A stretch of DNA of 64,000 bases from an uncultured delta proteobacterium (GTDB taxonomy: Bacteria; Myxococcota_A; Polyangia; Polyangiales; Houyiibacteriaceae). The stretch covers positions 160,001 to 224,000 of the forward strand of contig CAVOVB010000007.1 of assembly GCA_963699755.1 (NCBI GenBank). Reading direction: 5' to 3'. The notes under the pieces were generated by a model, which saw nothing but the letters and a program-made list of their open reading frames with translations, was not told the origin of the DNA and ran no database searches. The position numbers were made by a program, and so were the translations under genes. Below are positions 35,030-50,493 of the stretch, one piece after another (within the stretch, counting starts at the first letter, position 1; each line of letters opens with the position of its first letter).

Positions 35030-36706
35030 TCACCAGGACGGCCGCCAAGTCAGATTCGAGCCGAGGACCAAGACGCTCACGTCTTCGCCGAAGATTCCGT
35101 CGACGCGAACCCCGAGATCGAGGTCGTGCCCGAGTGCGAAATACAAGAGGCCGCCGGCCGAATGCTGCAGCCAACTCGTGGGGGACGCGACATACTGGTT
35201 GATCGACACCCGGTAGTAGGCGGAAATCTCACCGACACGCCGAATGTCTACCCCTGCTCCAAGACGCGCGGCGTAGTCCGATACGAACGAGCGCGCGTAG
35301 GCCGCGACCGAAAGGTCCGCCCAAGCGATATCTGCGATACGCAAGATGCGGGCCTGCAGGTAGCCAGAGAGTTGCTCGAATTCATCGGCAGTCTGGCTGT
35401 GCACGATGTTTGCGCCAGCATGGAGGGCGAAACGTGAAAACATGAAGCTTGCATCCAAGCCACCGAAATATCGCTGGTCATTGCTGTTGAGGCAGACCAA
35501 CTCGTCTCCGCCGCCAGCGGCCGGGTCCGGAACGGTGTTGCACAAGTAACCCAACGGCAGATACGAAGTGAGCCAGAGCGAACGTTCCGGTAACCGCATG
35601 TCGAAGCGGCCGGCGAGCTGAAAGAGGCCGACACGAATCGATGCGTCGAAGCCTGCTGCGCTCACTTCGAAGCGCGGCGCCCGCCAAGGATTGACCTCGT
35701 CGTGCATCGAGAGCTCGAAGTGCCCTCCGATCTGGCCATTTCCGGGAAACACGTCGAACTCCAGATTGAGGCGTCGCTCGTCGATTTCGCCCATGAACGT
35801 CGAAGCGTGTGCGGACAGGCCCACGAAAGGCTGGGCATCGAGCGATTCGTTTTGGTATGCGAGCTCCACCCCAAATCGCGTCGTATCCAGGGTCGGCAGA
35901 TAGTCGAGCGGGTTTGGCACCGTGCCGCCAAAGGCGCCGATCGTGAAGCCCTTCCAAGAAGGGGAGCGCACACGAAGCCCATCGAGCTGCCCGACACCGA
36001 CCGCAACGAAAGGCAGCCTGCCCAGCCCAAGCTGAGGGCTGGTCGACGTGCCGTAGCCGAATTGCAGCTCCCGGACCGCGAGCACTGGCCGGGAGGAGCT
36101 GCCCGGGCGATTTCCGATGTTGCCTCCGAACCAGGACCGCACGGCAATGTCTACGTCGAAGAACACAGGCTGCTCGAAAGGCTCGGCGTGGAGCCTTGCG
36201 CGTAGCGATGCACGGCCGAAGGACTCCCCGTCGCGCAACGCAAGAGTCCCACCTACGTCTGTCGAAAGGGCGAGATCGATTCGCTCCCCATCGGACCAGG
36301 TACCCAGAGGCACGTACTCCGGCGTCTGCCGCGTCGCGGGACGCACCGGCTCTGGCCATTGGCTCTCGTACGCGGTTAGAGGCTTGGGTTTGGTCAGTGA
36401 TGAGCTAACGGTCCGTTTGACCTTGGCCTCTGCCCGGCCGGTCATCCCGACTCGCAGCTCGCGTCCTTTCATCTCGATGACCGCGTGCTTGCCTGTCACC
36501 CCAACGACTCGGTAGCGACGATCACGAAGAACCACGACGGACCCTACTCCGACCCCCGCTGCTTCGCCTGGCGTCAGATAGGCGCGTCCGCCCGCAATGT
36601 CGACGACTTTGACGCTGACTCGGCTTCCAGATGCGGCGTTGGCCGCAGTCGTCGCGGCGAAGAGGGCCGTGCACGCAAGCAGCGCTGCGAACCAAGTCGG
36701 CCTCAT
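35030..36706 (-). CDS. Putative outer-membrane beta-barrel (porin partner of multiheme cytochromes)
   Basis: Signal peptide; small N-terminal beta domain; many amphipathic strands; C-terminal Trp; ATGA-coupled to the decaheme gene. Confidence 0.7.
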   Translation of the reverse strand: MRPTWFAALLACTALFAATTAANAASGSRVSVKVVDIAGGRAYLTPGEAAGVGVGSVVVLRDRRYRVVGVTGKHAVIEMKGRELRVGMTGRAEAKVKRTVSSSLTKPKPLTAYESQWPEPVRPATRQTPEYVPLGTWSDGERIDLALSTDVGGTLALRDGESFGRASLRARLHAEPFEQPVFFDVDIAVRSWFGGNIGNRPGSSSRPVLAVRELQFGYGTSTSPQLGLGRLPFVAVGVGQLDGLRVRSPSWKGFTIGAFGGTVPNPLDYLPTLDTTRFGVELAYQNESLDAQPFVGLSAHASTFMGEIDERRLNLEFDVFPGNGQIGGHFELSMHDEVNPWRAPRFEVSAAGFDASIRVGLFQLAGRFDMRLPERSLWLTSYLPLGYLCNTVPDPAAGGGDELVCLNSNDQRYFGGLDASFMFSRFALHAGANIVHSQTADEFEQLSGYLQARILRIADIAWADLSVAAYARSFVSDYAARLGAGVDIRRVGEISAYYRVSINQYVASPTSWLQHSAGGLLYFALGHDLDLGVRVDGIFGEDVSVLVLGSNLTWRPSW

Positions 36707-37632
36707 CGTGCGGTCCCTCCTGGGTGGCACCCCAAGCACGAGGCACCACTGCTCGAAACGCGCCGTCCATGCTGCTGCTGGAGCTTGACGGCGTTGTGCG
36801 CATGGCAACCCGTGCAGCGGACCAGCCGAGGCGTTCGCGCTGAGGTGTGGCAGCTATTGCACGGCGCCCCGCGGTGCGGGCCGTGCGAAACCGGAAAATA
36901 TCGGTCGTGATCGGGAGGGACGACCATGCCTCCGATGCCTGCTCTGACGGAGCTCGTCGACGCGGCGGTGAGTGACGTGGGGTCGATGAACGCAGGGCTC
37001 CAGGCGCTCGCAAGATGGCACTGAGAGCAATCTCGCGAAAACGGGTCGGAGGTGGCGGTTCCGCGGTGACTCGGATGGACGCTTGGATCGAGGTACTCGG
37101 CAGCGTGACAGGAGAAGCAGTCGCTTTGAACCGTCGTCCACTGCCGTTCTCCGTTTCGCAGATGGCATTCGGTGCAGTCGGCCAGCGCGTGCATGCCCGT
37201 CAAGGGGAAGCGTGTTCGGCGATGGATCTCGAACGGCTCCATGTCGTTCCAGCGTCTCGAGGAGTGGCAGCTGTCGCATCGACCGCTCAGGCGTTTCTGG
37301 TGTGGATTTTCGTGGCACGCTCCGCACTCCCTCGTAACTCGCCGCTCGCCGCTGTGACACTGATTGCAGGCAGCCGGCTCATGTCTCCCTGTGAGCGGGA
37401 AACCCGTGCGGGAATGGTCGAAGCCTTCGCCTGATTTGCCCCCCATCATCTTCCAGCTCGCCGGCGTGTGGCAGTTGCCGCAATCAAGCCCCTCGGTGAT
37501 CGAGTTGTGGCTGGCAGCCCTGGCTTGGGCCGCGTTCCGTTCGGGGTCTTTGGCGATCGCGAGCCCGGCAATGCCGGCGAGAGCGACGATGCCCAAAACG
37601 ATGAATAGCCTAATCAACAGGGCGCGGTTCAT
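36703..37632 (-). CDS. Decaheme cytochrome c
   Basis: 10 CxxCH in 309 aa; N-terminal signal/TM; FPLTG.H modules. Confidence 0.9.
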   Translation of the reverse strand: MNRALLIRLFIVLGIVALAGIAGLAIAKDPERNAAQARAASHNSITEGLDCGNCHTPASWKMMGGKSGEGFDHSRTGFPLTGRHEPAACNQCHSGERRVTRECGACHENPHQKRLSGRCDSCHSSRRWNDMEPFEIHRRTRFPLTGMHALADCTECHLRNGERQWTTVQSDCFSCHAAEYLDPSVHPSHRGTATSDPFSRDCSQCHLASAWSPAFIDPTSLTAASTSSVRAGIGGMVVPPDHDRYFPVSHGPHRGAPCNSCHTSARTPRLVRCTGCHAHNAVKLQQQHGRRVSSSGASCLGCHPGGTAR

Positions 37633-39266
37633 CGCTGCCCCTTTCTGCGCGCGTGCGGGTTGCCATGACAATCGGCGCACTCGCGATACCCGAGCCTGTA
37701 TCTCACCACTTGCACCCCGCTTCGTAGGCGCTCCTTTTGGTGACACCCGACGCACTTGAGCCCGGCGTGAGCGCCTTCGAGCGGATAGTCGGCGAGCTCC
37801 TCGTGGGCGAACGCCTCGATCTCGAAAGCATCCGTTATGTGGCACACCTCACACTCGCGCTTGGGCTCGCTGAGCCGAAACTGTCCGGCGTGAGTGTCCT
37901 GGTGACAACCGGCACAGTCGCGCGGCGCTCCACGGTAGGTCGCCCCCCGTCCGCTGAGCCGGTCCGCTTTCGAGGGGCTATGGCAGCTGTCACAGGCCGC
38001 TTCGGAGTGCGCGCCGGTCAGCGGCCAGGTGCTGTGGTCGATTTTGGGTGAGTCCCAGCCGCGCTCGGAGTGGCAATGCGCGCAGCCCCCATCGCTCATT
38101 TCGCTGGCGAACTGGTCGCCGTGGGGGTTGTCGTGGCAATCGATACAACGCTGCGATTTCAGCTCGAGCCGGTAGTGAGGTCGTTTCCCTTGGTGACAGC
38201 CCGTGCAAGGGACCGACTGATGCTTGCCATCGAGAGGGAACTTGGTCCGGCTGTGCTGCTCGACACCAAACGAAGTCGGCCAGAACCCGTGTTCGTCGTG
38301 GCAGGACTTGCAGTCGGCGCTTCCAAGGCTCCCGCGGTGCACATCTTTGTGGCAGTCCCCGCATTGATCGAACTCGAGACGGCGATATCGGCGCTCCATC
38401 GGCAGCTTGGGCGAATGGCAGCTAGTGCACGCGACGTCTTGATGCCGGCCTTCGAGGGGAAACGCAGTGAGAGGATGCGCGCGAAGCCCGATCCTGGTGG
38501 GCAGCCGCGTCCAGCGAATGCTGGCATGGCAGTTCTCGCATCGATCTCCGAATTTCGCTTCGTGAACCTGCGCATGGCAGGCTACGCACGCCGCGCCCGC
38601 GCTTGGGGCCGAGGTGTTGCCTTTGTCGTGACAGGCCTCGCACTTCGTTTTCGCATGCCCGCCGGCGAGGCTGAGACCAGGATGGTTGCTCCTGACGTTG
38701 GTGACCTGGCTCCAGTCGGTTTCGTTGTGGCACGACGTGCATTCAGCCCCCGCAAATCTGCCCTCGTGGGGATCCTCGTGGCAGGACACACAGTCGGTCT
38801 TCAGCCCGAGAAACGTCGCTTGACCGCGACGGTTGCGGCGATCGTGACAGTCCTCACATCGAACCGAGGCATGAGCCCCCTTGAGCGGCCAGCCCGATAG
38901 GCGATGATCGAAACGCGTCTGCCCACCGCCTGGCCACCGAACGAGCTTCGCATTCCTTCCGAGATGCTCGACGTGGCACTGGCCGCAGTCTTGTCCGCGA
39001 TACTCTCGTCCGTGGAGACCTGCCTGCTGGCGTATCCGTGCCCCCAAGTCGTCGTGGCAAGCCAGACAGGCATCGGTGTCGAGCCGCTGGCCGGTCGAGT
39101 GGCATTCACTGCAATTCGCATCGCCCTCGAGCTCGGCGTGTGCGCTCGTGAGCTTTCCGGGCGATAGGAACTGAGCGCCGGTCGGCCGAGGCACCAGCAC
39201 GCCAGCAATCGCAGCCGCGATCATCCACGCGCCCAAAAGCACCATAGCGGTCGTCCGCCCGCTCAT
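37629..39266 (-). CDS. 20-heme cytochrome c
   Basis: 20 CxxCH in 545 aa; signal peptide; SPG.L..AH start; repeated (W/F/Y)PL.G.H triheme modules. Confidence 0.9.
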   Translation of the reverse strand: MSGRTTAMVLLGAWMIAAAIAGVLVPRPTGAQFLSPGKLTSAHAELEGDANCSECHSTGQRLDTDACLACHDDLGARIRQQAGLHGREYRGQDCGQCHVEHLGRNAKLVRWPGGGQTRFDHRLSGWPLKGAHASVRCEDCHDRRNRRGQATFLGLKTDCVSCHEDPHEGRFAGAECTSCHNETDWSQVTNVRSNHPGLSLAGGHAKTKCEACHDKGNTSAPSAGAACVACHAQVHEAKFGDRCENCHASIRWTRLPTRIGLRAHPLTAFPLEGRHQDVACTSCHSPKLPMERRYRRLEFDQCGDCHKDVHRGSLGSADCKSCHDEHGFWPTSFGVEQHSRTKFPLDGKHQSVPCTGCHQGKRPHYRLELKSQRCIDCHDNPHGDQFASEMSDGGCAHCHSERGWDSPKIDHSTWPLTGAHSEAACDSCHSPSKADRLSGRGATYRGAPRDCAGCHQDTHAGQFRLSEPKRECEVCHITDAFEIEAFAHEELADYPLEGAHAGLKCVGCHQKERLRSGVQVVRYRLGYRECADCHGNPHARRKGQR

Positions 39267-40150
39267 TGGGAAAAGATCCATCGATAGCCGTAGATCCAAG
39301 CCACGGCGATGTGTACGGGAACGAGCAAAACGAGGATCAGCGCGAGCAACCGGTGGAAGCCTCGCCAGGACTGAAGCAGCGAGGAGGCTCCGACCGCGAC
39401 AACCTCGCGGGTTGCGTACTTGCGGACCACGCGCTTCGCCTTTCGAAAGCGTCTTCGTTCTTTGCGTCCGAGGACGTCAGCAACTGGGGCATCCTCGATC
39501 ACGAAGCTCACGATGAAGCCTCTTGAACGCGCATCCATCACCCACCTCGGAATGGCGGCGAGCTTGGCGAGCAGCCACTGATGCGCATCGACTTGGGTGA
39601 CCTTGTGGATCGCGAGCGCATGGTACACCCGGGCGCTGCACCCCGGAGCGAGCTCATCCAACGAGGCGAGCGCCTGCTCGAGCCGGGCTCGATCGGGACG
39701 CGGCGTCAATGCATAGAGATAGCGGCCTGCGATCCCGGTCGCCACCACGACGCCTAGACTGACCGCTGTGACCAGCGCGATCGGTGTCCGAAACTGGAAT
39801 GCGGAATGAAAGAGGATGAGGAGTGACCCGATCAGTCCGGTGAAGACGTGTAGGTTGAGCCAGGTGGCCATCGAGCCGAGCGACCAGCGCGCGAGCCTTC
39901 GCCGCGCGAGGTAGAGGAGGTTGGCGAGGATCAAGATCGTTCCGACGATGCCGTACCCGTGTCCGACCAGGCCGCCGGGCCGAAGCGCGTCGTAGTCGCC
40001 GTGCTCCACCCTCGCCTCGAGGTCGGACAGATAGAAGTCTTGACCGAGATCCCAGAGCACGTAGGCAAGAACGGAAATCGCCAACAACACCAGCAAGACG
40101 GCGCTTCGATCCGCGCGGCGCTTCTGCGCAGCTTTGGTTTTCCTCCCCAC
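39263..40150 (-). CDS. His-rich integral membrane protein, ferric-reductase/cytochrome b-like
   Basis: About 5 TM helices; GHGYG, WLNLH, LFHS, W..FH and VHI motifs; ATGA-coupled to the 20-heme gene. Confidence 0.7.
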   Translation of the reverse strand: MGRKTKAAQKRRADRSAVLLVLLAISVLAYVLWDLGQDFYLSDLEARVEHGDYDALRPGGLVGHGYGIVGTILILANLLYLARRRLARWSLGSMATWLNLHVFTGLIGSLLILFHSAFQFRTPIALVTAVSLGVVVATGIAGRYLYALTPRPDRARLEQALASLDELAPGCSARVYHALAIHKVTQVDAHQWLLAKLAAIPRWVMDARSRGFIVSFVIEDAPVADVLGRKERRRFRKAKRVVRKYATREVVAVGASSLLQSWRGFHRLLALILVLLVPVHIAVAWIYGYRWIFSQ

Positions 40151-40245
40151 AGCCCCCTACAGACGACGGGTCCCCACCCGTCCTGCATGTTAGAATCCCA
40201 GCGTAACAAAGGGGAGCCATTCGCACAAAAGGGCGAGCCGAAAAC

Positions 40246-41565
40246 ATGACCACTTGGATTGCACTTGGCTTCTTCGCTGCAGTTGCCCTCGGCTTGAACC
40301 TTTTTTGGAGACGAAACGAGCAGGTGCGCACCGAGACAGGTCGCCAAAAACTCGAGGAGCTGCGAGCCATGGGGGACCTCGTCCCCGCGAGCATTCATCC
40401 TGAGATCGATCCCATCCGCTGCATCGGTTCAGGGGCATGTGTCTATGCCTGCCCGGAGAAGAGCGTCCTCGCGGTGGTCAATGGCAGGGGCGTGCTGACC
40501 AACCCGCTCGGCTGCATCGGACACGGCGCCTGCGCCTCGGCCTGCCCAGTTCAGGCGATCTCGTTGGTGTTTGGCACTGAGAAGCGCGGGCTCGAGCTGC
40601 CCCAGCTGGATCCCGACTTTCAGACCAACCAGCCCGGCATCTACATCGTCGGCGAGCTCGGCGGAATGGGACTCATTCGTAACGCGGTCTCGCAGGGACG
40701 GCAGGCGGCTGACCACATCGTCGCGGGTCATCGCAGAGGAGCAGGCGAATCGCTCGATGCACTGATCGTCGGCGCCGGCCCGGCCGGGACGAGCGCGACG
40801 CTGCGCTTGATGGAAGCCGGGTTGCGGGTGCTCTTGCTCGAACGGGAAGCCTTTGGCGGCACGATTACACACTACCCGCGGGCGAAGGTCGTCATGACCG
40901 GATCGCTCGACTTCCCGATGTACGGGCGTGTGTCCAAGACAAAGATGAGCAAGGAGCAGCTCATGACGCTCTGGGAGGACATCCAGGAGAAGACCGGGCT
41001 GCAGGTCGCTGTGGGAGAGCTCGTCGAGAAGATCGAGCGCGGACCGGGACCGAACGACAGCTGGTTGGTCTCCTCCACCGGCGGTGTGTTCGGAGCGGCA
41101 AACGTCCTCTTGGCCCTCGGCCGTCGCGGCTCTCCGCGTAAGCTCGGGGTGCCCGGCGAGGAACGTTCGAAGGTCGCCTATCGAGTGATCGAGCCCGAGG
41201 TCTTTCGAGAGCAGCACGTATTGGTGGTCGGCGGCGGCAATGCGGCGGTCGAGTCGGCATTTGCCCTACTCGATGGCGGAAACTGCGCGTCGGTGACGAT
41301 CAGCTATCGCAAGAATGCTTTTGCGCGCTGCCGTGAGCCGAACCGCAAGCGCATCGAAGCGGAGGTCCAGGCCGGCCGGCTTACCGCGTTGATGGGCACC
41401 GAGGTCGAGGAGATCTTCGACGATCGAGTCACCCTCCGCAACGGGTCGGGACTGCCGATCTCGATCCAGAACGACGCGGTCGTGGTCCAGGTCGGTGGAA
41501 CGGCGCCGACCGACTTGCTTCAGGGCGTCGGGATCGAGATCGTCACCAAGTACGGAGAAGCCTAG
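40246..41565 (+). CDS. Membrane-anchored NAD(P)/FAD oxidoreductase (TrxR/YpdA-like) with ferredoxin dicluster domain
   Basis: N-terminal TM; CIGSGACVYACP and CIGHGACASACP; VGAGPAG; VGGGNAA; YRK. Confidence 0.85.
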   Translation: MTTWIALGFFAAVALGLNLFWRRNEQVRTETGRQKLEELRAMGDLVPASIHPEIDPIRCIGSGACVYACPEKSVLAVVNGRGVLTNPLGCIGHGACASACPVQAISLVFGTEKRGLELPQLDPDFQTNQPGIYIVGELGGMGLIRNAVSQGRQAADHIVAGHRRGAGESLDALIVGAGPAGTSATLRLMEAGLRVLLLEREAFGGTITHYPRAKVVMTGSLDFPMYGRVSKTKMSKEQLMTLWEDIQEKTGLQVAVGELVEKIERGPGPNDSWLVSSTGGVFGAANVLLALGRRGSPRKLGVPGEERSKVAYRVIEPEVFREQHVLVVGGGNAAVESAFALLDGGNCASVTISYRKNAFARCREPNRKRIEAEVQAGRLTALMGTEVEEIFDDRVTLRNGSGLPISIQNDAVVVQVGGTAPTDLLQGVGIEIVTKYGEA

Positions 41566-42254
41566 TCGCGATTACGGCCGTCGGCATGGCACTCCAAGCA
41601 GAAATTGGGAGATGCCTCTCCACTCGGGTAGCGGCCGACCTCGTTGTGTTTTGGATCCATCCGGGCGCGCGTGTGCTCTCCGTCGTGGCAACCAACGCAA
41701 TCGCTGTTCTCGCCGCCCACCGGCGATCCGAGCGCAGGGTTGTGGCAGGACACGCAGTCGTTCCGGTACGGCGAATGCGCCCCGTTCTGAATGGGAAACG
41801 CGTTCTCGGGATGCGTACCGCCAACCGCTGGCGCCCACGCTTCGGTCGTATGGCAGTTCTCGCAGGTCGTGGGGAAGTCTGAGTGTCCCGGATACGGGCT
41901 GCTGTCATAGTCGTCTTGATGACATCCGACGCACAGGGTGGGGGTGCCCTGGAAGACCGCTGGATTTCCGACGTGGCATGACGCACAGTCGACGTCGGCC
42001 GCCGCATGCGCGCCATTGAGCGGCCACGGATGCATGAACAACCGTGCCGGCTTCCAAGCGTCGCTGCTGTGGCAGGTGCCGCAGGTATCCGGAAAGCCTT
42101 GATGTGGGGGGTTGAGGGCGTGCTGCACATCCTCGGCGTGACAGACGATGCAATCCGCACCGCGCACCTCGACGCGCGCGTGGTCCTGCGTGCCGCCAGT
42201 GCACGCATGGTTGAGCAAGAGCACGCCCAGCACCCCGATCCTGAGAAATCGCAT
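41562..42254 (-). CDS. Octaheme cytochrome c lipoprotein
   Basis: 8 CxxCH in 230 aa; signal MRFLRIG...LLLNHA-C (lipobox-like). Confidence 0.85.
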   Translation of the reverse strand: MRFLRIGVLGVLLLNHACTGGTQDHARVEVRGADCIVCHAEDVQHALNPPHQGFPDTCGTCHSSDAWKPARLFMHPWPLNGAHAAADVDCASCHVGNPAVFQGTPTLCVGCHQDDYDSSPYPGHSDFPTTCENCHTTEAWAPAVGGTHPENAFPIQNGAHSPYRNDCVSCHNPALGSPVGGENSDCVGCHDGEHTRARMDPKHNEVGRYPSGEASPNFCLECHADGRNRD

Positions 42255-42516
42255 CACCCGTCGGCCACCAATCCGCTCACCCAAAGTTAGCACCTCTGGC
42301 TTAGACTCGGTAGCTGACCGACGAACAGGGGAAGCCCTGTAACACGCTGAAAAAACAGGCTTTGAGGGGTACGGAGCGGGATCTTGTCGACCGACGCAGC
42401 CGAGTGCTTGAAACTGGGCCTCCGATGTGCCTCTGTTCTCTCACCAATCGAGGGCGAACCTTGATTTGAGGGCCCCTTACATTTAACCTGGCGGGGTTAA
42501 TCACAATGGCATTAGA

Positions 42517-44724
42517 ATGTCACCCATGAGGCTTAGTTCTCGTGGACCGCTTGGGCGCCTCGCGGCTCTCGGGCTAGTGGCCACCTTGTTGATCGGCGTG
42601 GGATGCAGTGGGGCTGCGAGTCCGTCTCACGAACCGGGGAGGATCGTTCAAGCCGAATGCATCACGTGCCATGAAGCAGACCGCAAGGCGGCGATCAATC
42701 CACCGCACGCTTCCCTCCCGAGCACATGCCAGGACTGCCACACGGAACACCAATGGGACCCGGCTGTGTCCACCACCATCCACACGCCGCTTCCGACATC
42801 TTGCGTAACGTGTCACGAAAACCAGCCCCGGCCGCAAACGCTCTTCCATACGCAGGCCGTCGAGACCGAGTGCGTCAACTGCCACCGAAACTATCCGGAT
42901 TGGACGCAGGCCAACTTCCTCCACATGCCCGCGCCTCGCGCCTGCGCAGATTGCCACGCGGATCAGAGGCCCAACACGCCCACGCACCAAACCTCGCAAG
43001 GCCAGGGCGACTGTGCGTCGTGCCACATCATCAACGACTGGGCGATCACCGACCCGGCGGCGCTTCACACCCCGCTGCCAGCGTCTTGCGTGACATGTCA
43101 TGAAAACGATACGCAACCGCAGACGATCTTTCACACCCAAGCCGTGGAGAGCGAGTGTGCGAGCTGTCACACGAACTATCCGGATTGGACGCAAACCGAC
43201 TTCCTTCATTCGCCCGTGCCGAGCACCTGCAACGACTGCCACAGCGACCTCAGACCCACGACGCCCACGCATCAATCGACCGCGGGCCGGGGAGACTGTG
43301 CCGGCTGCCACGTCGTGGACGACTGGGCCATCACCGACCCGGCAGCCATTCACACGCCGCTGCCGGCATCCTGCAAGACGTGTCACCAAGACACTTTGCA
43401 GCCCCAGACAATCTTCCACACCCAGGCCTTCGACACCGAGTGCCGCAGCTGTCACCGAAGCTATCCGGATTGGAAGCCGGCTGATTTCCTCCACACGCCC
43501 GTGCCCAGCACCTGCGATGCTTGCCACAGCGATCTGAGACCCACGACTCCTACGCATCAATCGGCCGCAGGCCTCGGGGACTGTGCCCGCTGCCACGTCG
43601 TGGAAGACTGGGCCGTCACCGACCCGGCCACACTCCATGCGCCGCTTCCGGCAGCGTGCATATCGTGTCACCAGAACGAACCGCGACAGTCGACGATTTT
43701 CCATACCCAGGTCCTCGAGCCCGAATGCGCCGGCTGTCACCGGAGCTATCCGGATTGGACACCGGTTGACTTTCTCCACGCGCCTGTGCCCGACACCTGC
43801 TTGGACTGTCACTCTGATCGAAGACCCGACACGGCCACGCACCAAACCGCGGCGGGCCAGGGCGACTGCGCCTCCTGCCATCTCGTCAGCGACTGGACGA
43901 CGGCCGATCCGGAGGAGCTCCATACGCCGCTTCCAGCATCTTGCATGACATGTCACCAAAACGAGCCTCGGCAACCGACGATCTTCCACACCCAGATCGC
44001 TCAACCCGAGTGCGCGCGCTGTCACCATCAATATCCAGGTTGGACGCCGGCTGACTTCTTGCACGCGCCCATTCCAAACACCTGCAATGCTTGCCACAGC
44101 AACCTGCGGCCCAATACTCCGACGCATCAATCAGCCGCAGGACTCGGGGACTGCGCCAGCTGCCACGTCGCGAACGACTGGACACTGGTCGATCCGACAG
44201 CGCTCCACACACCGCTTCCGGCCGCTTGCATTGCTTGTCACGCCGACGAACCCAGGGCGAACAATCCGCTACACACGCAAACATACGAACCCGAATGTGC
44301 GAGCTGTCACCGCTCGTATCCGGCCTGGACTCCGGCAACGTTCGCCCACACTCCGCCGCCAACGCGCTGCTATGACTGTCACGAATCGCAGCGCCCCATG
44401 ACCCCAACGCACCCCAGCACTGGCGACTGCCTGGGTTGCCACGCGACGTCAGCCTGGCTTCCGGCAACGGGTGGCGCCCATCCCGAAACTGCGTTCCGGA
44501 TCCAATCGGGAGCGCACTCGAGATATCGAAACGATTGTGCCTCCTGCCACAACGTGGCGCTCGGCTCGCCCGTGGGCGGCGAGAATACCGACTGCGTCGG
44601 TTGCCACGATGGCACCCACACGCGGTCCCGCATGGACAGCAAGCACGGGGACGTGCGCAACTATCCGAGCGGCGCCGCGCCTCCGAACTTCTGCCTAGAT
44701 TGTCATTCAGACGGCCGAAACTAG
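42517..44724 (+). CDS. 29-heme cytochrome c lipoprotein with six tandem tetraheme repeats
   Basis: 29 CxxCH in 735 aa; lipobox IGVG-C. Confidence 0.9.
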   Translation: MSPMRLSSRGPLGRLAALGLVATLLIGVGCSGAASPSHEPGRIVQAECITCHEADRKAAINPPHASLPSTCQDCHTEHQWDPAVSTTIHTPLPTSCVTCHENQPRPQTLFHTQAVETECVNCHRNYPDWTQANFLHMPAPRACADCHADQRPNTPTHQTSQGQGDCASCHIINDWAITDPAALHTPLPASCVTCHENDTQPQTIFHTQAVESECASCHTNYPDWTQTDFLHSPVPSTCNDCHSDLRPTTPTHQSTAGRGDCAGCHVVDDWAITDPAAIHTPLPASCKTCHQDTLQPQTIFHTQAFDTECRSCHRSYPDWKPADFLHTPVPSTCDACHSDLRPTTPTHQSAAGLGDCARCHVVEDWAVTDPATLHAPLPAACISCHQNEPRQSTIFHTQVLEPECAGCHRSYPDWTPVDFLHAPVPDTCLDCHSDRRPDTATHQTAAGQGDCASCHLVSDWTTADPEELHTPLPASCMTCHQNEPRQPTIFHTQIAQPECARCHHQYPGWTPADFLHAPIPNTCNACHSNLRPNTPTHQSAAGLGDCASCHVANDWTLVDPTALHTPLPAACIACHADEPRANNPLHTQTYEPECASCHRSYPAWTPATFAHTPPPTRCYDCHESQRPMTPTHPSTGDCLGCHATSAWLPATGGAHPETAFRIQSGAHSRYRNDCASCHNVALGSPVGGENTDCVGCHDGTHTRSRMDSKHGDVRNYPSGAAPPNFCLDCHSDGRN
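42781..44451 (+). repeat. Six degenerate 285-bp (95-aa) intragenic tandem repeats
   Basis: Units start at 42781, 43066, 43351, 43636, 43921 and 44206 (H(T/A)PLP..CxxCH); the last unit is shorter. Confidence 0.95.
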
Positions 44725-44745: not shown

Positions 44746-44946
44746 TCAGAATGCTTTGCCTTCGCTCATCCCGAAACGCTTCGCGATCGTCGCCATGGGG
44801 CAAAAGCCCGTAAAGGAGGCCTGAAACATGTTCAGCCCGACAAAGGCCGGAAGGATGAGCCAGGCGATATTGTGACTGTAGGCGAGGATCACGCCTGCGG
44901 TGACCATGATGCCTGCAACTCGAAAGACCAATTTGTCGATGTTCAT
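44746..44946 (-). CDS. DUF2892 (YgaP-like) small membrane protein
   Basis: R.AG; FVGLN.FQ..FTGFCP motif. Confidence 0.85.
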   Translation of the reverse strand: MNIDKLVFRVAGIMVTAGVILAYSHNIAWLILPAFVGLNMFQASFTGFCPMATIAKRFGMSEGKAF

Positions 44947-44972
44947 GATTGCGTTCCTTTCGTTTTGAAATC

Positions 44973-46592
44973 TCAGAAGGAGTAGCGAAGCCTCGCGTAG
45001 ACGTTCGTGTTCTCTTGGAGCTGTCCGAAGAAGCTGTAGTCGTCGCGACCGAACATGAGGTTCGCGCCGATGACGATCGCCAGGGGCTCGACGATCTTGT
45101 AGGTGATGCGCGGCCGGATGTAGGTGTCGAGCTGGTCCGGCGAGAAGAAGACGAAGAGCGAGAGCTCGAGCTTGTCCATGACCAGGAGCTGGTTGAGCCG
45201 TAGCGTGATGAGGTGCCGGAACTCGTGCTGCTCGTATTGAGGCCAGAACGAGCTCGCGATCAGCTCGTCGTACTTGAGCGTGTACTCGAGGTAGTATTGC
45301 AGGCCCATTTGGAACTTCGGAAGGAGCTCACGCTCATAGCCCACCAGTCCCCGGAACTGGGAGTTCGGTATCGCGGGGCTCGTCCCCGCCCGATCCTTGA
45401 ATGAGTCGTAGAACGCACCTTCGACGTTGAAGAGGCCGCCAAAGAGCGGGGTGCGCAGGCTCGCGCCGTAGACGGCCAGGCGCGCGTAGGTGAGCCCCAA
45501 AATGGTGTTCGGATCCGCCGGGTCGGTGAGCGCAAGCGCATTGGGCTGCATCCAGTAACCCACATAGCCATAGGCCGCGAGCTCGACGGCGCCTGCCGTG
45601 CCGTAGAGGCGGCCGTGGATCGTGCCGTTTCGCAGTCGCTGCTCGGGGAAGAACGGATCGATCGGCGTGAGCGGAGACCGATCGCCGACGACCTCTGCGA
45701 CCAGGGGATTGAAGAACGAGAGACGCTGCCCGTTGATGAAGCGATCCGGCTCGAAGATCGGGGTCCAGATCAAGTCCAGTCCGACTTTGTTCATCATGAA
45801 CGTGGTCTGCACCGAATTCGAGGGCGCCTTGAGGTATTCGTCCGCGCGACCGATGAAGAAGGAGTTGAAGTCCTTCGGAAAGAGGTCGTTCAAGAACAAG
45901 AAGTCGCCCGTGCCCCAGGTGAGCACCTGACGGCCGAACCGCATGCTGAACCAGCTTCCACCACGTATGAAGATCGACGCATCTCGAATGTCGAACCAGA
46001 TCCGACGGTCGACGGCGTCCGCGAAGACATCGCCCCGAAAGCGTGCGCTCACGATCTCATGGGTGGCGTCGAGGTTCAGACGAAAGCGCGCCTCGTTTGC
46101 GACGAATTCATTGGCGCTGGCGCTGCTTGGGACGACGCGCGGCGCGATGAGGCCTTCGACGAAGCCGCCGATCTGAAAGTCCCAGGCCTTGGCGCCAGAG
46201 CCTCCTTCTCCTCCACCCTCTTCCTCTTCCCAGTCGTCGAACTCGCCCCAGTCCTCGTCGCCGCCAGAATCGTCGGCCGGCTCGACGTCGCCCGCGAGCT
46301 CCTCGGGCGGATCCGAAGCTTCTGCGGCGTTCAGCGGGCCTTCTGCCTCAGCCTCGAGCGCCTCTTCCGCTCTCGGATCAGGAGACCCCTCGGGCTCAGA
46401 CCGAGTAGATGGACCTGCGTCGGAGCCGCCCGCGCCCTCCTCTTCCTTGGGCGCGGCCATCTCTTGCCCGACTTGACCGAGGGCCCCAGAGGCGAAGACG
46501 AGGGCCGTGAACACGAGCGCAGCGATCGCCAAGCACCTGAGCGAGCCGCCACCCTCGTGGCACCGCTCGGTAGTACAGATCGCCGGTTTCAT
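44973..46592 (-). CDS. Outer-membrane beta-barrel protein (DUF1302-like) with acidic disordered N-terminus
   Basis: Signal peptide; E/D-rich region; GRQVLTWGTGD; C-terminal LRYSF; start ATG46592. Confidence 0.7.
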   Translation of the reverse strand: MKPAICTTERCHEGGGSLRCLAIAALVFTALVFASGALGQVGQEMAAPKEEEGAGGSDAGPSTRSEPEGSPDPRAEEALEAEAEGPLNAAEASDPPEELAGDVEPADDSGGDEDWGEFDDWEEEEGGGEGGSGAKAWDFQIGGFVEGLIAPRVVPSSASANEFVANEARFRLNLDATHEIVSARFRGDVFADAVDRRIWFDIRDASIFIRGGSWFSMRFGRQVLTWGTGDFLFLNDLFPKDFNSFFIGRADEYLKAPSNSVQTTFMMNKVGLDLIWTPIFEPDRFINGQRLSFFNPLVAEVVGDRSPLTPIDPFFPEQRLRNGTIHGRLYGTAGAVELAAYGYVGYWMQPNALALTDPADPNTILGLTYARLAVYGASLRTPLFGGLFNVEGAFYDSFKDRAGTSPAIPNSQFRGLVGYERELLPKFQMGLQYYLEYTLKYDELIASSFWPQYEQHEFRHLITLRLNQLLVMDKLELSLFVFFSPDQLDTYIRPRITYKIVEPLAIVIGANLMFGRDDYSFFGQLQENTNVYARLRYSF

Positions 46593-46626
46593 GGATTTGC
46601 TCCGTGCTCGTCTGCGCGCGCTCCGC

Positions 46627-47436
46627 TCAGCGAAGCCACTTGACGGGCGGATTTCGAAGAGAGCCCTCGACGAAGATGTCATCGGGGATCCCGAGGTCGT
46701 AGCTCACGTTGCTGACGTCGCTCAGCGTGTACCCACCCAACTCGAGATCACTGACCTTGAGCCTGGTGATGGTCGGATGCCCTTGTATGGTGTCCACCTT
46801 GGCGGTTTCGATGCGCCGGTACACCTTGCCCTGCGCGTTTACGTACTCGATCTGGCTGGGCAAGAAAGTCTTCTTGTTGATCCGTAGTGTGTAGTGCACG
46901 AACTCGACGCCCTTGCTGCTCTTGGGCGTGCTCTTCACCACATACTCCGTGTCGGTCGTTTCGATGAGCTCGTGCTTGTCCTCGTCGGGATGTCGCCCGG
47001 AGATATCTTCGTAAAAAAAGTTCGTTCCGACGAAGCTCGTGCGCTCGTCGCTAGCTGCGATTCGCTTCACGAGATCGAGACCTGGAAGGTACAGCCAGCG
47101 ATCGTCGTCCTTGTTAGCATGCTTCTTCACAAGGAACGCCGTGTTGCGAACGTCGGCGGGCTGGTCGAAGACGACTAGGTAGTTCTGGTCGCCTCCGTCC
47201 TTCAAGTCGCGCCTTAGAACCGCGAATTGCCGTCGCTGGGAGCGCCCCTTGCCGTCGACGATCTTCATCCGGATGAGTGCTCGTCCATCTTTTGCCGCGT
47301 AGTACTGGGCGTTGTTCGTGCGATTTACGATTTCACTCGCGTCCTTCAGGTCGCCTGCCTCCGCGGACATCGCGGGGGTCGAGAGAAGAATCGTGGCAGC
47401 GACCGCCGCCAACCAGGTCTTGCTGAGGTCTTTCAT
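46627..47436 (-). CDS. Outer membrane lipoprotein-sorting (LolA-like) protein
   Basis: F.QPADVR.T.FL; DD.WLYLP.L..VKRI; F.GT.F.YED. Confidence 0.9.
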   Translation of the reverse strand: MKDLSKTWLAAVAATILLSTPAMSAEAGDLKDASEIVNRTNNAQYYAAKDGRALIRMKIVDGKGRSQRRQFAVLRRDLKDGGDQNYLVVFDQPADVRNTAFLVKKHANKDDDRWLYLPGLDLVKRIAASDERTSFVGTNFFYEDISGRHPDEDKHELIETTDTEYVVKSTPKSSKGVEFVHYTLRINKKTFLPSQIEYVNAQGKVYRRIETAKVDTIQGHPTITRLKVSDLELGGYTLSDVSNVSYDLGIPDDIFVEGSLRNPPVKWLR

Positions 47437-50057
47437 GCTGTTTGCTCCTTGTTGGTCGCAAGGGACGCCGCGGCGTCGTCCTCGCTCGTTGCTACCGTCT
47501 CCGTTTTTGGGGAGAGCCGGTTTTGGATTTGCATCATGATCGAGGGCAGTAGCACCACCGTGACGACGCTCGAGACGGCCATGATGGCTGCCATCAGGAA
47601 GCCCACGGTGTTGTAGGGAACCAGCGGCGCTCCGAGCAACGGAAGGAACCCAATCGCGATGACGATCGCGTTGCGCGTGATCGCCCTACCCGGCTCCTGG
47701 AACATGAGTGACATCGTTTTGCTCCAGTCACCGGTCTCCTTTTGAATTGACCTAGCGCGCTCGAGGAAATGAATCGCGAAGTCGACCGAGAGGCCAAGCG
47801 TCAAGGACGAGAGGACGGCGACCGGCATGTCGTAGTCCTTGCCCACCAAACCGATCAGTCCGTAGGTGAAGACGATCGTAATCGTGAGTGGGACCATCGC
47901 CAGCACGCCGTACAACGCCGACCGGAACAGGATCACCATCATCAGGAACACGATGACGAACGCGCCCATCAAGCTCTCGAGCATTCCGCCGACCATTTCG
48001 TCCTGCCACACCGTGTTGAGGAACGTGAGGCCGGCCCATTGGACGCGAAGGCCCTCAGGCGGAGGGTTGCCGGCCAAGAAGGTGTCGAGGTCGGTCTTGA
48101 CCGACATCATGTCCTGATTGTCACCGCTCTTGAGCTGCACCCAGATGGCGCTTTCACGGTAGTCGGGGCTCACCAAGTGCCAGAGATCATTCGGACGGTG
48201 AGACGACTGGAACTGGAGGAGCGTCTGCGCGACGCCCTCGGTGGAGCCTGGGATCCGGTAGTCCTCGTCATCTCCACTGAGGAGCTCCCGGTAGACAGTC
48301 TTCACGACATCGGCGATCGAGCTCGTCTTGCCAACGAGGGGCAGCGCGTCCGCTTCCTTCTGGAGCCGTTCGATGTAAGCCAGGTGCTCCGGGTTCTGGA
48401 AGGTCTTGCTTGCCGTCTGCGCCTCTTCGAGCGCGGTCTGCACCGCCTGCCACCGCTCCGAGTCTTCGCCGCTGGTGTCAAAGACCAGATCGGAGGTCGC
48501 TTCGATCAAGGAGTCGGAGACGTTCGTCGCCCCTTCCTCGCTCGCTGCTTCCGCATCGGCTTTGAGAGCGTCCCAGCGAGCGCGCATGTGGCCGCTTGCA
48601 CCCTGGAGGGCTTTGTCACCTGCCGCGATGATCTCGGCGCTTGCATCGGTATCCTGCTTCATGACGAGGAAGGCGGTATAGGTGCCGGCGAGCTCTTGGT
48701 TGAGCACCCTGTCGGCCACGCGGATCTTGTGAGAAGGCTTGAACCAACGGACCGGGTTGTCGTTGATATTTATCTGCGTGATGCCGTATCCGCTGATCGC
48801 GATCGCGACGACCGTCACGACGAGAATCGGCTTGGCGAAACGAAGGCTCTTGGCGCCCACGGCTTCCACGGCGCGACCCAGCAATCCACCCTCGCTTGCG
48901 TCGCGCTTGGCCGAGAGCAGCGCCGTCAAGCGTTTCTCGGGAAGCGCAGCGATGTAGGCAGGGACGAACAAGATCGTCAAGACGAAGGCGACGGCGATGC
49001 CGAAGGCGACAAACGCACCGAAGACACGGACAGGCGGAATCGGGGTCAGCATGAGCGATAGGAAACCCGCCGCCGACGTGAGAGATGTGTACAGCATCGG
49101 CGCGAACAGGTGCCCGACGACCTCCTTGATCGCGACCTTGCGATCGCCGGTCTTCGGGTAGATATCCACGAATTCCGATAGCAGATGGACGGAGTCGACG
49201 ACCGCTATGGGCATCAGGAAGATCGGAATCATCGAGCTCATGATATGCACGGTGAAGCCACTCGCGATCAGGGCTCCCATCGTGATGGTCACTGTGGTCA
49301 TGGCGACGATCATCGGCGACAAGACCAAGGCGAAGGAACGGAAGAACCACCACATCAGCAGAAGGATCACCAGAGCAGCAAGGGGCGCGGAAACCGCCAT
49401 CTGCTTGAACATCTCGACGCCAAAGGTGTCCTCGGCTACCGGAAGGCCGGTGATGTAGAACTCATCGCTGTTGTTGCCGAAGCCGGCGATGACCGCTTCG
49501 ATCTCTTGGGAGATGCGGTGGCTCTGATCCTTGCTCTCGATCGGGACGTAGAGCGCGACACTCTTGCCATCTTCGGAGACCACGGTGCCGCGAAGCATGG
49601 GCAGCCGAAGGGCGGCCTCCTTGATCGCAAGAGCCTCCTCCGGAGTCTTGGGTGCTTCCTCCATCAACCATTCGAAGCGAATCGTCCCAGGCCCAGCCTG
49701 CTCGATGTTGTCCATGGTCGAGGGCCCAAGAACGTCCCGTGCAATGACGCCGTCGATCGACTTCAGCCGCTCGTTGAGCTCGTGAATGCGGGCAAGCGAC
49801 TCGGGGTTGAAGACCCCCTCCGGCTCGGCCTCGTTCACGACGCCCACGACGATCAGGTCGTGAAGGGCGAACTCCCCCTTGGTCTCGTTGTGAAAGACGC
49901 GCGCTGCGTCGTGCTCCGCGAGCATGTTCTCCGGATCGGTATCGACTTGGATCGAGGGAATGGCCGCACCGAGGCCGATCGTGAGCACGGCCAGGCCGAC
50001 GAAGATCAGGCGCGTGTGTTGAATTGGGAAATCGAGAATCTTTCGCTTCATGGACAT
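47433..50057 (-). CDS. MMPL/RND family transporter
   Basis: Two membrane halves with AVVDSVH and SVDFAIH, YTSLTS; large periplasmic loops. Confidence 0.9.
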   Translation of the reverse strand: MSMKRKILDFPIQHTRLIFVGLAVLTIGLGAAIPSIQVDTDPENMLAEHDAARVFHNETKGEFALHDLIVVGVVNEAEPEGVFNPESLARIHELNERLKSIDGVIARDVLGPSTMDNIEQAGPGTIRFEWLMEEAPKTPEEALAIKEAALRLPMLRGTVVSEDGKSVALYVPIESKDQSHRISQEIEAVIAGFGNNSDEFYITGLPVAEDTFGVEMFKQMAVSAPLAALVILLLMWWFFRSFALVLSPMIVAMTTVTITMGALIASGFTVHIMSSMIPIFLMPIAVVDSVHLLSEFVDIYPKTGDRKVAIKEVVGHLFAPMLYTSLTSAAGFLSLMLTPIPPVRVFGAFVAFGIAVAFVLTILFVPAYIAALPEKRLTALLSAKRDASEGGLLGRAVEAVGAKSLRFAKPILVVTVVAIAISGYGITQININDNPVRWFKPSHKIRVADRVLNQELAGTYTAFLVMKQDTDASAEIIAAGDKALQGASGHMRARWDALKADAEAASEEGATNVSDSLIEATSDLVFDTSGEDSERWQAVQTALEEAQTASKTFQNPEHLAYIERLQKEADALPLVGKTSSIADVVKTVYRELLSGDDEDYRIPGSTEGVAQTLLQFQSSHRPNDLWHLVSPDYRESAIWVQLKSGDNQDMMSVKTDLDTFLAGNPPPEGLRVQWAGLTFLNTVWQDEMVGGMLESLMGAFVIVFLMMVILFRSALYGVLAMVPLTITIVFTYGLIGLVGKDYDMPVAVLSSLTLGLSVDFAIHFLERARSIQKETGDWSKTMSLMFQEPGRAITRNAIVIAIGFLPLLGAPLVPYNTVGFLMAAIMAVSSVVTVVLLPSIMMQIQNRLSPKTETVATSEDDAAASLATNKEQTA

Positions 50058-50091
50058 CCGCTCCGTGTGAACTGGACTGAATCTAGGCCTC

Positions 50092-50120
50092 TATATATGC
50101 TCACATAATCATATAGTCAA
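50092..50120 (-). promoter_or_regulatory. Candidate sigma70 promoter of the MMPL operon overlapped by an ArsR-type operator
   Basis: Minus strand TTGACT (50120-50115), 17 nt, TATATA (50097-50092); inverted repeat TATATG-N10-CATATA at 50094-50115. Confidence 0.65.
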
Positions 50121-50160
50121 GTGGTGATTTTTTCCAGGAATGGCGCTATAAAGGGAAGAG

Positions 50161-50493
50161 ATGGCAAAAACCGCGCTCACCCCACAGAATCTGGACTCGG
50201 TCGCGACGCGGTTCCGCATCCTCGGGGTCCCGCTCCGGTTGCAGATTCTGAACGAGCTAGCCGATGGGGAGCGGACGGTAACGGCCCTGGTCCAAGCCAC
50301 GGGCAGCACGCAGCCCAACGTCTCCAAGCACCTCACCACCCTGCTCGCACACCGCTTGGTCAAGCGCGAGAAGCGCGGGAACTCGGCGTACTACTCGGTT
50401 TCCGACCCGGCGGTATTCAGGCTCTGCGAAATCGTCTGCGGGAACATCGAGCGGGCGCTCGATGAAGAACGCGCGGCGTTTAGCGGCGGTTAA
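50161..50493 (+). CDS. ArsR/SmtB family transcriptional regulator with C-terminal CxxxC
   Basis: P.RL.IL..L; Q.NVSKHL..L; G...YYS; LCEIVC. Confidence 0.9.
   Translation: MAKTALTPQNLDSVATRFRILGVPLRLQILNELADGERTVTALVQATGSTQPNVSKHLTTLLAHRLVKREKRGNSAYYSVSDPAVFRLCEIVCGNIERALDEERAAFSGG

Follow-up and report, generated by a model that had tools for sequence, protein, structure and literature searches.

Seven adjacent open reading frames (ORFs) at 35030-44724 of a 64-kb window (the whole stretch of DNA analysed, 64,000 nucleotides of contig CAVOVB010000007.1 from an uncultured delta proteobacterium) encode four multiheme c-type cytochromes, an outer-membrane beta-barrel, an inner-membrane protein and a divergently oriented Fe-S flavoprotein, and raise the question of what feeds electrons into such a cluster and to which family it belongs. 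An earlier note on this DNA had proposed an electron conduit across the envelope unlike MtrCAB; the locus is nevertheless not new in kind, since the membrane protein, the 20-heme cytochrome, the barrel and the gene order map onto PCC3, a family of predicted porin-cytochrome clusters. The locus is, by homology of its parts, a myxobacterial variant of the PCC3 family, real and conserved. The four-gene PCC3 core is already in print, and what appears to be new is a fifth gene, that of the flavoprotein, with its implication for the family. With modest confidence, we favour a reading in which electrons would pass from NAD(P)H through FAD, Fe-S clusters, two b hemes and the 20-heme cytochrome to the barrel, a quinone-independent export resembling that of the NADPH oxidases (NOX).

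Co-occurrence and fusion carry the case for the fifth gene. Of 301 Myxococcota genomes, 95 have a match to the membrane protein; the core flavoprotein, taken at 430 bits or more with weaker and longer paralogs set aside, occurs in 70, all of them among those 95. Thirty-five Myxococcota loci were inspected at the best matches to the membrane protein, and 30 of them, including a broken copy on contig C1 of the source bin, contain barrel, membrane protein and flavoprotein in varied order; the misses are four contig ends and one paralog. Across 121 Gallionellaceae genomes, the membrane protein is present in 55 and the flavoprotein in 59, with both in 55 and neither in 62; in 50 of the 55 the two genes lie within 2.2 kb, always divergently, and the remaining five have them on separate contigs (three), 5.6 kb apart (one) or 821 kb apart (one). 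The membrane-protein profile used for the Gallionellaceae was built from proteins adjacent to the flavoprotein, a possible bias, and all of its matches have E values of 1e-62 or better. The share of 55 in 121 is close to that of the PCC3 periplasmic cytochrome in a published pangenome (42 of 87 Gallionellaceae genomes; PMC10734462). Against named genomes, the flavoprotein profile found at least 576 relatives, the best 80 of which include members of Gallionella, Bradyrhizobium, Methylotenera, Amphritea and Thiodiazotropha, genera or groups with PCC3 according to PMC5566968, and also of Ignavibacteria, Bacteroidota, Acidobacteriota and Calditrichota; over all phyla, 66 of these 80 loci have the membrane protein within the stretch of DNA retrieved and 60 also have a cytochrome with at least 10 hemes.

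The two proteins also occur as fusions. In 15 loci (L063-L071, L161, L164-L168) the chain begins with the membrane protein, and in four loci (L061, L062, L163, L169) and five database proteins (P0230-P0234) it begins with the flavoprotein. Because both orders occur, fusion must have taken place at least twice, and in both orders the flavin domain lies on the cytoplasmic side. One fusion folds in prediction as a single chain (pLDDT 85, pTM 0.66), and fold searches with this model gave matches that were taken up by the flavin domain. Thus the earlier assignment of the divergent flavoprotein to this system is borne out by 70 of 70 Myxococcota, 55 of 55 Gallionellaceae and fusions in both orders, and the natural fusions make the link to the membrane protein a physical one. 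The system also occurs in cultured bacteria, among them Undibacterium sp. Ji22W (L115).

The PCC3 type was predicted from sequence in Alpha-, Beta- and Gammaproteobacteria (He et al. 2017, PMC5566968), with four named genes and an assumed coupling to quinones. Its parts are a porin, a repeat-rich extracellular cytochrome carrying 10-35 hemes or more, a periplasmic cytochrome with a median of 21 hemes at 22-39 residues each, and a membrane protein of about 300 aa whose five helices bear two WX3HX13H motifs and, on the fourth, SGXXG. The window's membrane protein has the same size class (295 aa), five hydrophobic segments, both histidine motifs and TGIAG (Thr for Ser) within TGIAGR, and its profile aligned with that of 30 proteins from PCC3-type loci at a probability of 99.9% (hhalign). 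The 20-heme cytochrome has the low number of residues per heme (27), and is 30-32% identical over about its full length (202-239 bits) to 21- and 24-heme proteins that adjoin the membrane protein in Amphritea, Gallionella, Undibacterium and Thiodiazotropha. The barrel is distantly homologous to the PCC3 porins, and the order membrane protein, periplasmic cytochrome, second cytochrome, porin is that of Slit_1446-1449 (PMC11429942, Table 1), one of the two PCC3 clusters of S. lithotrophicus ES-1 (the other being Slit_0867-0870). The neighbourhoods of flavoprotein relatives likewise contain a membrane protein, an 18-27-heme cytochrome, a large second cytochrome and a porin. Loci are called PCC3-type here by host, gene order and heme counts and not by way of the accessions of He et al.; the 63 and 21 hemes of an Amphritea locus (L129) equal the figures given for A. 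atlantica (PMC5566968).

The locus differs from published PCC3 in its Polyangiales host, in a shorter barrel with a small N-terminal beta domain against the long N-terminal part of the proteobacterial porins, and in its second cytochrome, represented by the 10-heme protein plus separate lipoprotein cytochromes. The 10-heme gene, which sits between those of the 20-heme protein and the barrel, matches PCC3-type second cytochromes weakly (E 1e-7 to 1e-10), and the 29-heme protein, encoded outside the operon, is repeat-rich and matches them better, at about 25% identity in low-complexity sequence. The four genes named in the available parts of PMC5566968 do not include the Fe-S flavoprotein, which also stands beside proteobacterial PCC3-type clusters. 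Full-text searches, with figures and most subscription papers outside their reach, found neither a mention of an Fe-S flavoprotein with PCC3 nor PCC3 in Myxococcota. A conductive-particle consortium contains a Lentimicrobium cluster, of 61 and 20 hemes (PMC13013709), that may be of the same family.

The motif histidines of the membrane protein, H101/H115 and H266/H280, are invariant in 29 of 29 aligned homologs, and the protein is predicted to be a di-heme cytochrome b, in agreement with the b-type protein of the earlier note; positive-inside loop charges suggest that H101 and H266 would lie near the cytoplasm and H115 and H280 near the periplasm. The Pfam scan gave no match for the window protein, and its family profile found nothing below E 0.2 among the sequences of solved structures. 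All eight paralogs scanned are fused or adjacent to multi-[4Fe-4S] domains, and the presence of other cytoplasmic redox modules beside such paralogs supports cytoplasmic input. These paralogs belong to a sister system in Myxococcota (L170-L187, with fusions for example at L173:6014-8530 and L181:4210-6495), mostly beside 25-31-heme cytochromes and short barrels, and at least one has a cNMP-binding domain. In another locus (L028:9045-12606) a 7-heme cytochrome and a short paralog accompany an FNR-type FAD/NAD/[2Fe-2S] protein; together they look like a ferric reductase in split form and resemble clusters in Supplementary Table 6 of He et al. (PMC5566968). Homologs fused to DUF547 (PF04784; P0235-P0272), several of them labelled Planctomycetes, account for 38 of 43 long matches.

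The flavoprotein consists of an N-terminal helix, a two-cluster ferredoxin domain and a thioredoxin reductase (TrxR)-type domain that would bind FAD and NAD(P)H. The cluster motifs, CxxSxxCxxxCP and CxxHxxCxxxCP, have unusual ligands: over 80 homologs the His position is kept in all 80, and the Ser position is Cys in 40, Ser in 35 and another residue in 5. YpdA residues 1-271 align to profile positions 171-436 and residues 278-293 to positions 123-138, weakly and in register; with its terminal segment thus placed in front, the TrxR-type domain appears to be circularly permuted. An Arg pair after the Gly-rich motif is a mark of NADPH, and since two Arg (R355 and R361), invariant in 27 aligned sequences, follow the second Gly-rich motif, NADPH is more likely than NADH to be the donor. 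The closest solved structures are YpdA/Bdr and TrxR-type ferredoxin-NADP reductases (PDB 7a76, 7a7b, 2zbw, 3ab1, 3lzw), which share the FAD/NADPH fold without a redox CxxC; unlike YpdA/Bdr, the window protein is permuted, anchored in the membrane and fused to a two-cluster ferredoxin with His/Ser ligands. That YpdA/Bdr gives the best sequence and fold matches leaves room for a reductase of low-molecular-weight disulfides, connected with the wire through regulation or as a side branch, which we regard as highly improbable given the family score (TIGR04018, 134 against a cut-off of 340 bits), the fused ferredoxin, the anchor and the fusions to the heme-b protein. Membership of TrxR or YpdA proper was rejected: outside the ferredoxin the only cysteines are Cys347 and Cys362, neither conserved, there is no redox CxxC, and TIGR01292 likewise scores below cut-off (67 against 343 bits). 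One same-genus locus (L081:9950-14644, genome G161) has two flavoprotein copies with 8-, 14- and 29-heme lipoprotein genes, and in several loci of Gammaproteobacteria (L129, L135, L147, L114) the gene downstream of the flavoprotein encodes a protein of about 680 aa with ankyrin/Sel1 repeats.

The product of 35030-36706, which the earlier note had taken for a barrel, is predicted by AlphaFold2 as one (mean pLDDT 92.5, pTM 0.75; alignment of 135 of 1705 relatives, clustered at 50%, E 0.001). A signal peptide, a small periplasmic all-beta domain (about 29-93) and a Pro-rich linker precede a barrel (143-554) for which DSSP gives 22 strands; the chain forms no plug in the model. Its structural matches are large outer-membrane barrels of 18 to 24 strands (best Z 18.7, rmsd 4.8, 378 aligned), Foldseek gave generic barrels only among the matches listed, where the lack of MtrB carries no weight, and its ESM Atlas neighbours are unnamed clusters of Myxococcota and Planctomycetota. 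Pfam and NCBIfam scans gave no match for it (NCBIfam at E 0.1, including the MtrB/PioB-family TIGR03509). Profile alignment with 14 PCC3-type porins (hhalign probability 95.7%, E 1e-8, 305 columns, 11% identity) makes the barrel a distant homolog of these, with different N-terminal domains. Seven hemes of the 10-heme protein lie in repeats of the type that makes up the 20-heme protein, and the other three in a C-terminal module common to the 8- and 29-heme proteins; the 10-heme protein has no TIGR03508 (DmsE/MtrA family) match at E 0.1, the other cytochromes matching below cut-off, and by this comparison is not of the MtrA/DmsE family. In nine loci (L061, L062, L064, L065, L069-L071, L074, L075) a 10- or 13-heme gene is fused to the ortholog of the 20-heme gene, giving 30- or 36-heme proteins; this fits one continuous wire and shows only that the two form a chain. 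The predicted complex of the barrel (27-558) with the 10-heme protein (40-309) is evidence neither way (score 0.07; mark 0.32).

Without a plug, and near usher and TonB-dependent barrels in size, the barrel could instead be a pore through which very long cytochromes are exported or in which they are anchored, the electrons being stored in the periplasm or on the surface as in a capacitor, or used for periplasmic reduction, including reduction of heme or thiols in cytochrome maturation. A CcmH/CycH-domain gene between flavoprotein and membrane protein in the two loci that were domain-scanned (L129, L147) and the widely varying heme counts of the accessory cytochromes point this way. The coupling of the barrel gene to those of the cytochromes, its retention in the 30 Myxococcota loci mentioned above and the lack of a maturation gene in this locus speak against it; we consider such a pore quite unlikely.

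From these parts we infer an order of carriers for the favoured, outward route. NAD(P)H would reduce FAD in the permuted TrxR-type domain, and single electrons would travel by the two Fe-S clusters to the b heme on the cytoplasmic side of the membrane protein, across the membrane to the second b heme, and on to the 20-heme cytochrome; the 10-heme cytochrome and the 22-strand barrel would then deliver them to an acceptor on the cell surface or farther out. The 8- and 29-heme lipoproteins would be optional extensions of the wire. The whole would amount to a NADPH oxidase or ferric reductase (FRD) joined to a porin-cytochrome wire, bypassing the quinone pool and acting as a redox valve or extracellular reductase. 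In NOX/FRD, and in MsrPQ with Fre, two b hemes span the membrane and cytoplasmic NAD(P)H is fed in by way of a flavin. The window's membrane protein shares with NOX/FRD the two HX13H pairs on helices 3 and 5 (motif as in PMC5566968) and differs in having five helices, in its partner, a permuted TrxR-type flavin domain with ferredoxin in place of FNR, and in its output to a multiheme wire and barrel. Membership of NOX/FRD proper was rejected (no PF01794 match in the window protein; partner of TrxR type, not FNR type).

The earlier note held that direction cannot be read from the sequence; here we go further, in that energetics favour export. To reach NADP+ from outside, electrons would have to climb in redox potential and also move against the membrane potential, and outward flow from NADPH goes down both; export would therefore spend proton-motive force and not conserve it. 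The reverse course, in which Fe(II), minerals or a partner cell would reduce the wire and the flavoprotein would make NAD(P)H, has in its favour that PCC3 is common in iron oxidisers and that porin-cytochrome wires can run in both directions, as stated in the literature, and that TrxR-type ferredoxin-NADP reductases are among the flavoprotein's closest structures. Against it stand the uphill step and the lack of a coupling module in the locus. Metal oxidation, moreover, is not known from most PCC3 hosts (PMC5566968), and both ES-1 clusters are expressed at lower levels on Fe(II) than on thiosulfate (PMC8788666), so that uptake appears very unlikely. These ES-1 data, and the expression of PCC3 by CL21 with or without iron oxidation (10.1101/2025.02.27.639646), fit export.

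In the model of He et al. (PMC5566968) the PCC3 membrane protein exchanges electrons with the quinone pool, which would leave the flavoprotein as a side entry (NAD(P)H:quinone) or a regulator. The HX13H pairs resemble those of quinone-active cytochromes b, Ni_hydr_CYTB matches 12 of 29 homologs weakly (best E 6e-4), and respiration through quinones conserves energy, which direct export would not. The near-obligate flavoprotein partner, the fusions in two orders and the other cytoplasmic redox modules borne by paralogs are hard to place in such a scheme, which we hold to be unlikely.

Further points weigh against quinone-independent export. A di-heme b protein may exchange with quinones despite a cytoplasmic partner, as in MsrQ. 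Ferric_reduct (PF01794) matches only 9 of 29 homologs, weakly (best E 2e-5). The linkage is not universal: the genes are 821 kb apart in G432, one of two membrane-protein genes in G415 has no flavoprotein nearby, and 14 of the best 80 flavoprotein loci have no membrane protein, mostly through contig-end cuts, with L093 and L124 lacking it despite about 10 kb on both sides. Of the 95 Myxococcota genomes with a membrane-protein match, 25 have no intact core flavoprotein; in those opened, the match is mostly to a paralog that has another Fe-S module, or to a truncated gene. Because related genomes are not independent, the counts overstate the number of independent cases. The fit of a heme chain in the barrel is not assured, MtrB having 26 strands against 22 here. 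In the literature examined, members of the family are known from sequence prediction, and quinone exchange is what was proposed for their membrane protein (PMC5566968).

Genome surveys of Gallionellaceae and Leptothrix list PCC3 among the candidate iron oxidases, yet expression of the clusters does not track Fe(II). Export from NADPH that skips quinones offers a concrete alternative, to which the near-obligate NAD(P)H flavoprotein partner points. We extend it to the family tentatively: PCC3 clusters of Proteobacteria, Myxococcota, Ignavibacteria, Bacteroidota, Acidobacteriota and Calditrichota may be five-part, quinone-independent wires from cytoplasmic NADPH to the cell exterior, serving as redox valves or extracellular reductases and not as iron oxidases. 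If so, the reading of PCC3 clusters in metagenomes would change, extracellular electron transfer would extend to many sediment myxobacteria and to a route outside the respiratory chain, and a compact NADPH-to-electrode part would be available for bioelectrochemistry. The value of the locus, itself from an uncultured organism, thus lies in the fifth gene and its consequence for the whole PCC3 family.

The layout of the locus (Table 1) agrees with the earlier note in the seven adjacent ORFs and in the 67 CxxCH motifs of the four cytochromes (20, 10, 8 and 29). All other stop-to-stop frames of at least 100 aa in the window have 3 such motifs in total, so the clustering of 67 is not due to chance. 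The four minus-strand genes form an operon (membrane protein, 20-heme, 10-heme, barrel), and the proposed translational coupling is reflected in all three ATGA overlaps (39263-39266, 37629-37632 and 36703-36706).

Table 1. Features of the PCC3-type locus, with positions in the window
Feature	Position	Strand	Length	Basis or remark
Outer-membrane beta-barrel	35030..36706	-	558 aa	AlphaFold2 and hhalign
10-heme cytochrome c, cleavable-type signal peptide	36703..37632	-	309 aa	CxxCH count, repeat comparison
20-heme periplasmic cytochrome c, 27 aa per heme	37629..39266	-	545 aa	PCC3 periplasmic cytochrome ortholog
Five-helix inner-membrane protein	39263..40150	-	295 aa	PCC3 inner membrane protein family
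Gap between divergent membrane-protein and flavoprotein genes	40151..40245		95 bp	No sigma-70 consensus site
Membrane-anchored flavoprotein	40246..41565	+	439 aa	Pfam Fer4 and Pyr_redox_3
8-heme probable lipoprotein cytochrome	41562..42293	-		Start possibly ATG at 42254; accessory
29-heme probable lipoprotein cytochrome, acidic	42517..44724	+		Accessory

A divergent promoter had been proposed between the membrane-protein and flavoprotein genes; the geometry is as described, with opposite strands around a short gap, but the sigma-70 scan found no site there (one site in 10.3 kb against 1.5 expected by chance), and the scan of the locus for promoters and terminators was at chance level. G+C content is flat over the cluster region. 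Three estuary metatranscriptomes contain 6-9% of its words, and the contigs of relatives are scattered equally on cluster and flanks; the metatranscriptomes therefore do not show transcription of the cluster.

The two lipoprotein cytochromes, said to follow, do not do so as one unit. The 8-heme gene is convergent with that of the flavoprotein (the stops overlap by four bases), and 223 bp separate it from the 29-heme gene, which is read away from it on the other strand; both thus stand outside the four-gene operon; they are accessory and not co-oriented with it. The 29-heme protein has about six 95-aa four-heme repeats besides the shared C-terminal module. Heme counts of the accessory cytochromes differ widely among loci, those of the 8-heme protein included; the counterpart of the 29-heme protein has 14 hemes in L022 and was not found in L020 and L024, which are of the same genus and whose contigs continue. 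Thus a conserved unit of all seven genes does not stand, whereas the five core genes are co-conserved over the loci opened. Lipoprotein status is indicated for both proteins by a Cys after a hydrophobic stretch, kept in the homologs compared, but neither matches the strict lipobox pattern.

Other porin-cytochrome systems were compared. MtrCAB, MtoAB, PioAB and the Geobacter Pcc share the plan of a barrel with multiheme cytochromes, and differ from a locus that has no TIGR03508 match in its 10-heme protein, no NCBIfam match in its 22-strand barrel and no CymA/NapC gene; membership of MtrAB, MtoAB or PioAB was rejected on TIGR03508 and on TIGR03509 at E 0.1. PCC4 and the porin-less clusters of He et al. 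(section 16 and Supplementary Table 6) have the same membrane-protein motifs, and a further redox protein is often found in them (PMC5566968), which partly anticipates the flavoprotein link. PCC4 differs in its other redox proteins, its assumed quinone coupling and its three periplasmic cytochromes of 4, 5 and 10 hemes, against 20, 10, 8 and 29 here, by which membership was ruled out.

The earlier guess of a myxobacterium agrees with the best named homologs of the barrel, from 'Polyangiales bacterium' and 'Myxococcales bacterium SG8_38', which place the host among the Polyangiales. About two thirds of its contig, C7 (291 of 436 kb), has a counterpart at about 84% identity on contig C1, and bin contamination is 9%, so that the bin probably mixes two species. 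The C1 copy of the cluster (G000:C1:1796337-1803520, L029) has deletions and frameshifts, and was rejected as a paralog in the same organism; the window cluster is intact and matches intact clusters in same-genus genomes (8 of 15, counting this one). Beside the cluster, 44746-50493 encodes a YgaP-like membrane protein (DUF2892), a barrel-like protein, a LolA-like protein, an MMPL/RND transporter and an ArsR-family regulator. The MMPL, LolA-like and barrel cassette (44973-50057) and a wax-ester synthase were rejected as parts of the system; each flanks the cluster only within the genus. A separate multiheme cluster of the same bin (G000:C1:612995-626197; 3, 13, 23, 9, 7, 8 and 10 CxxCH motifs), with a NapC/NirT-type gene, is a possible quinol-fed system.

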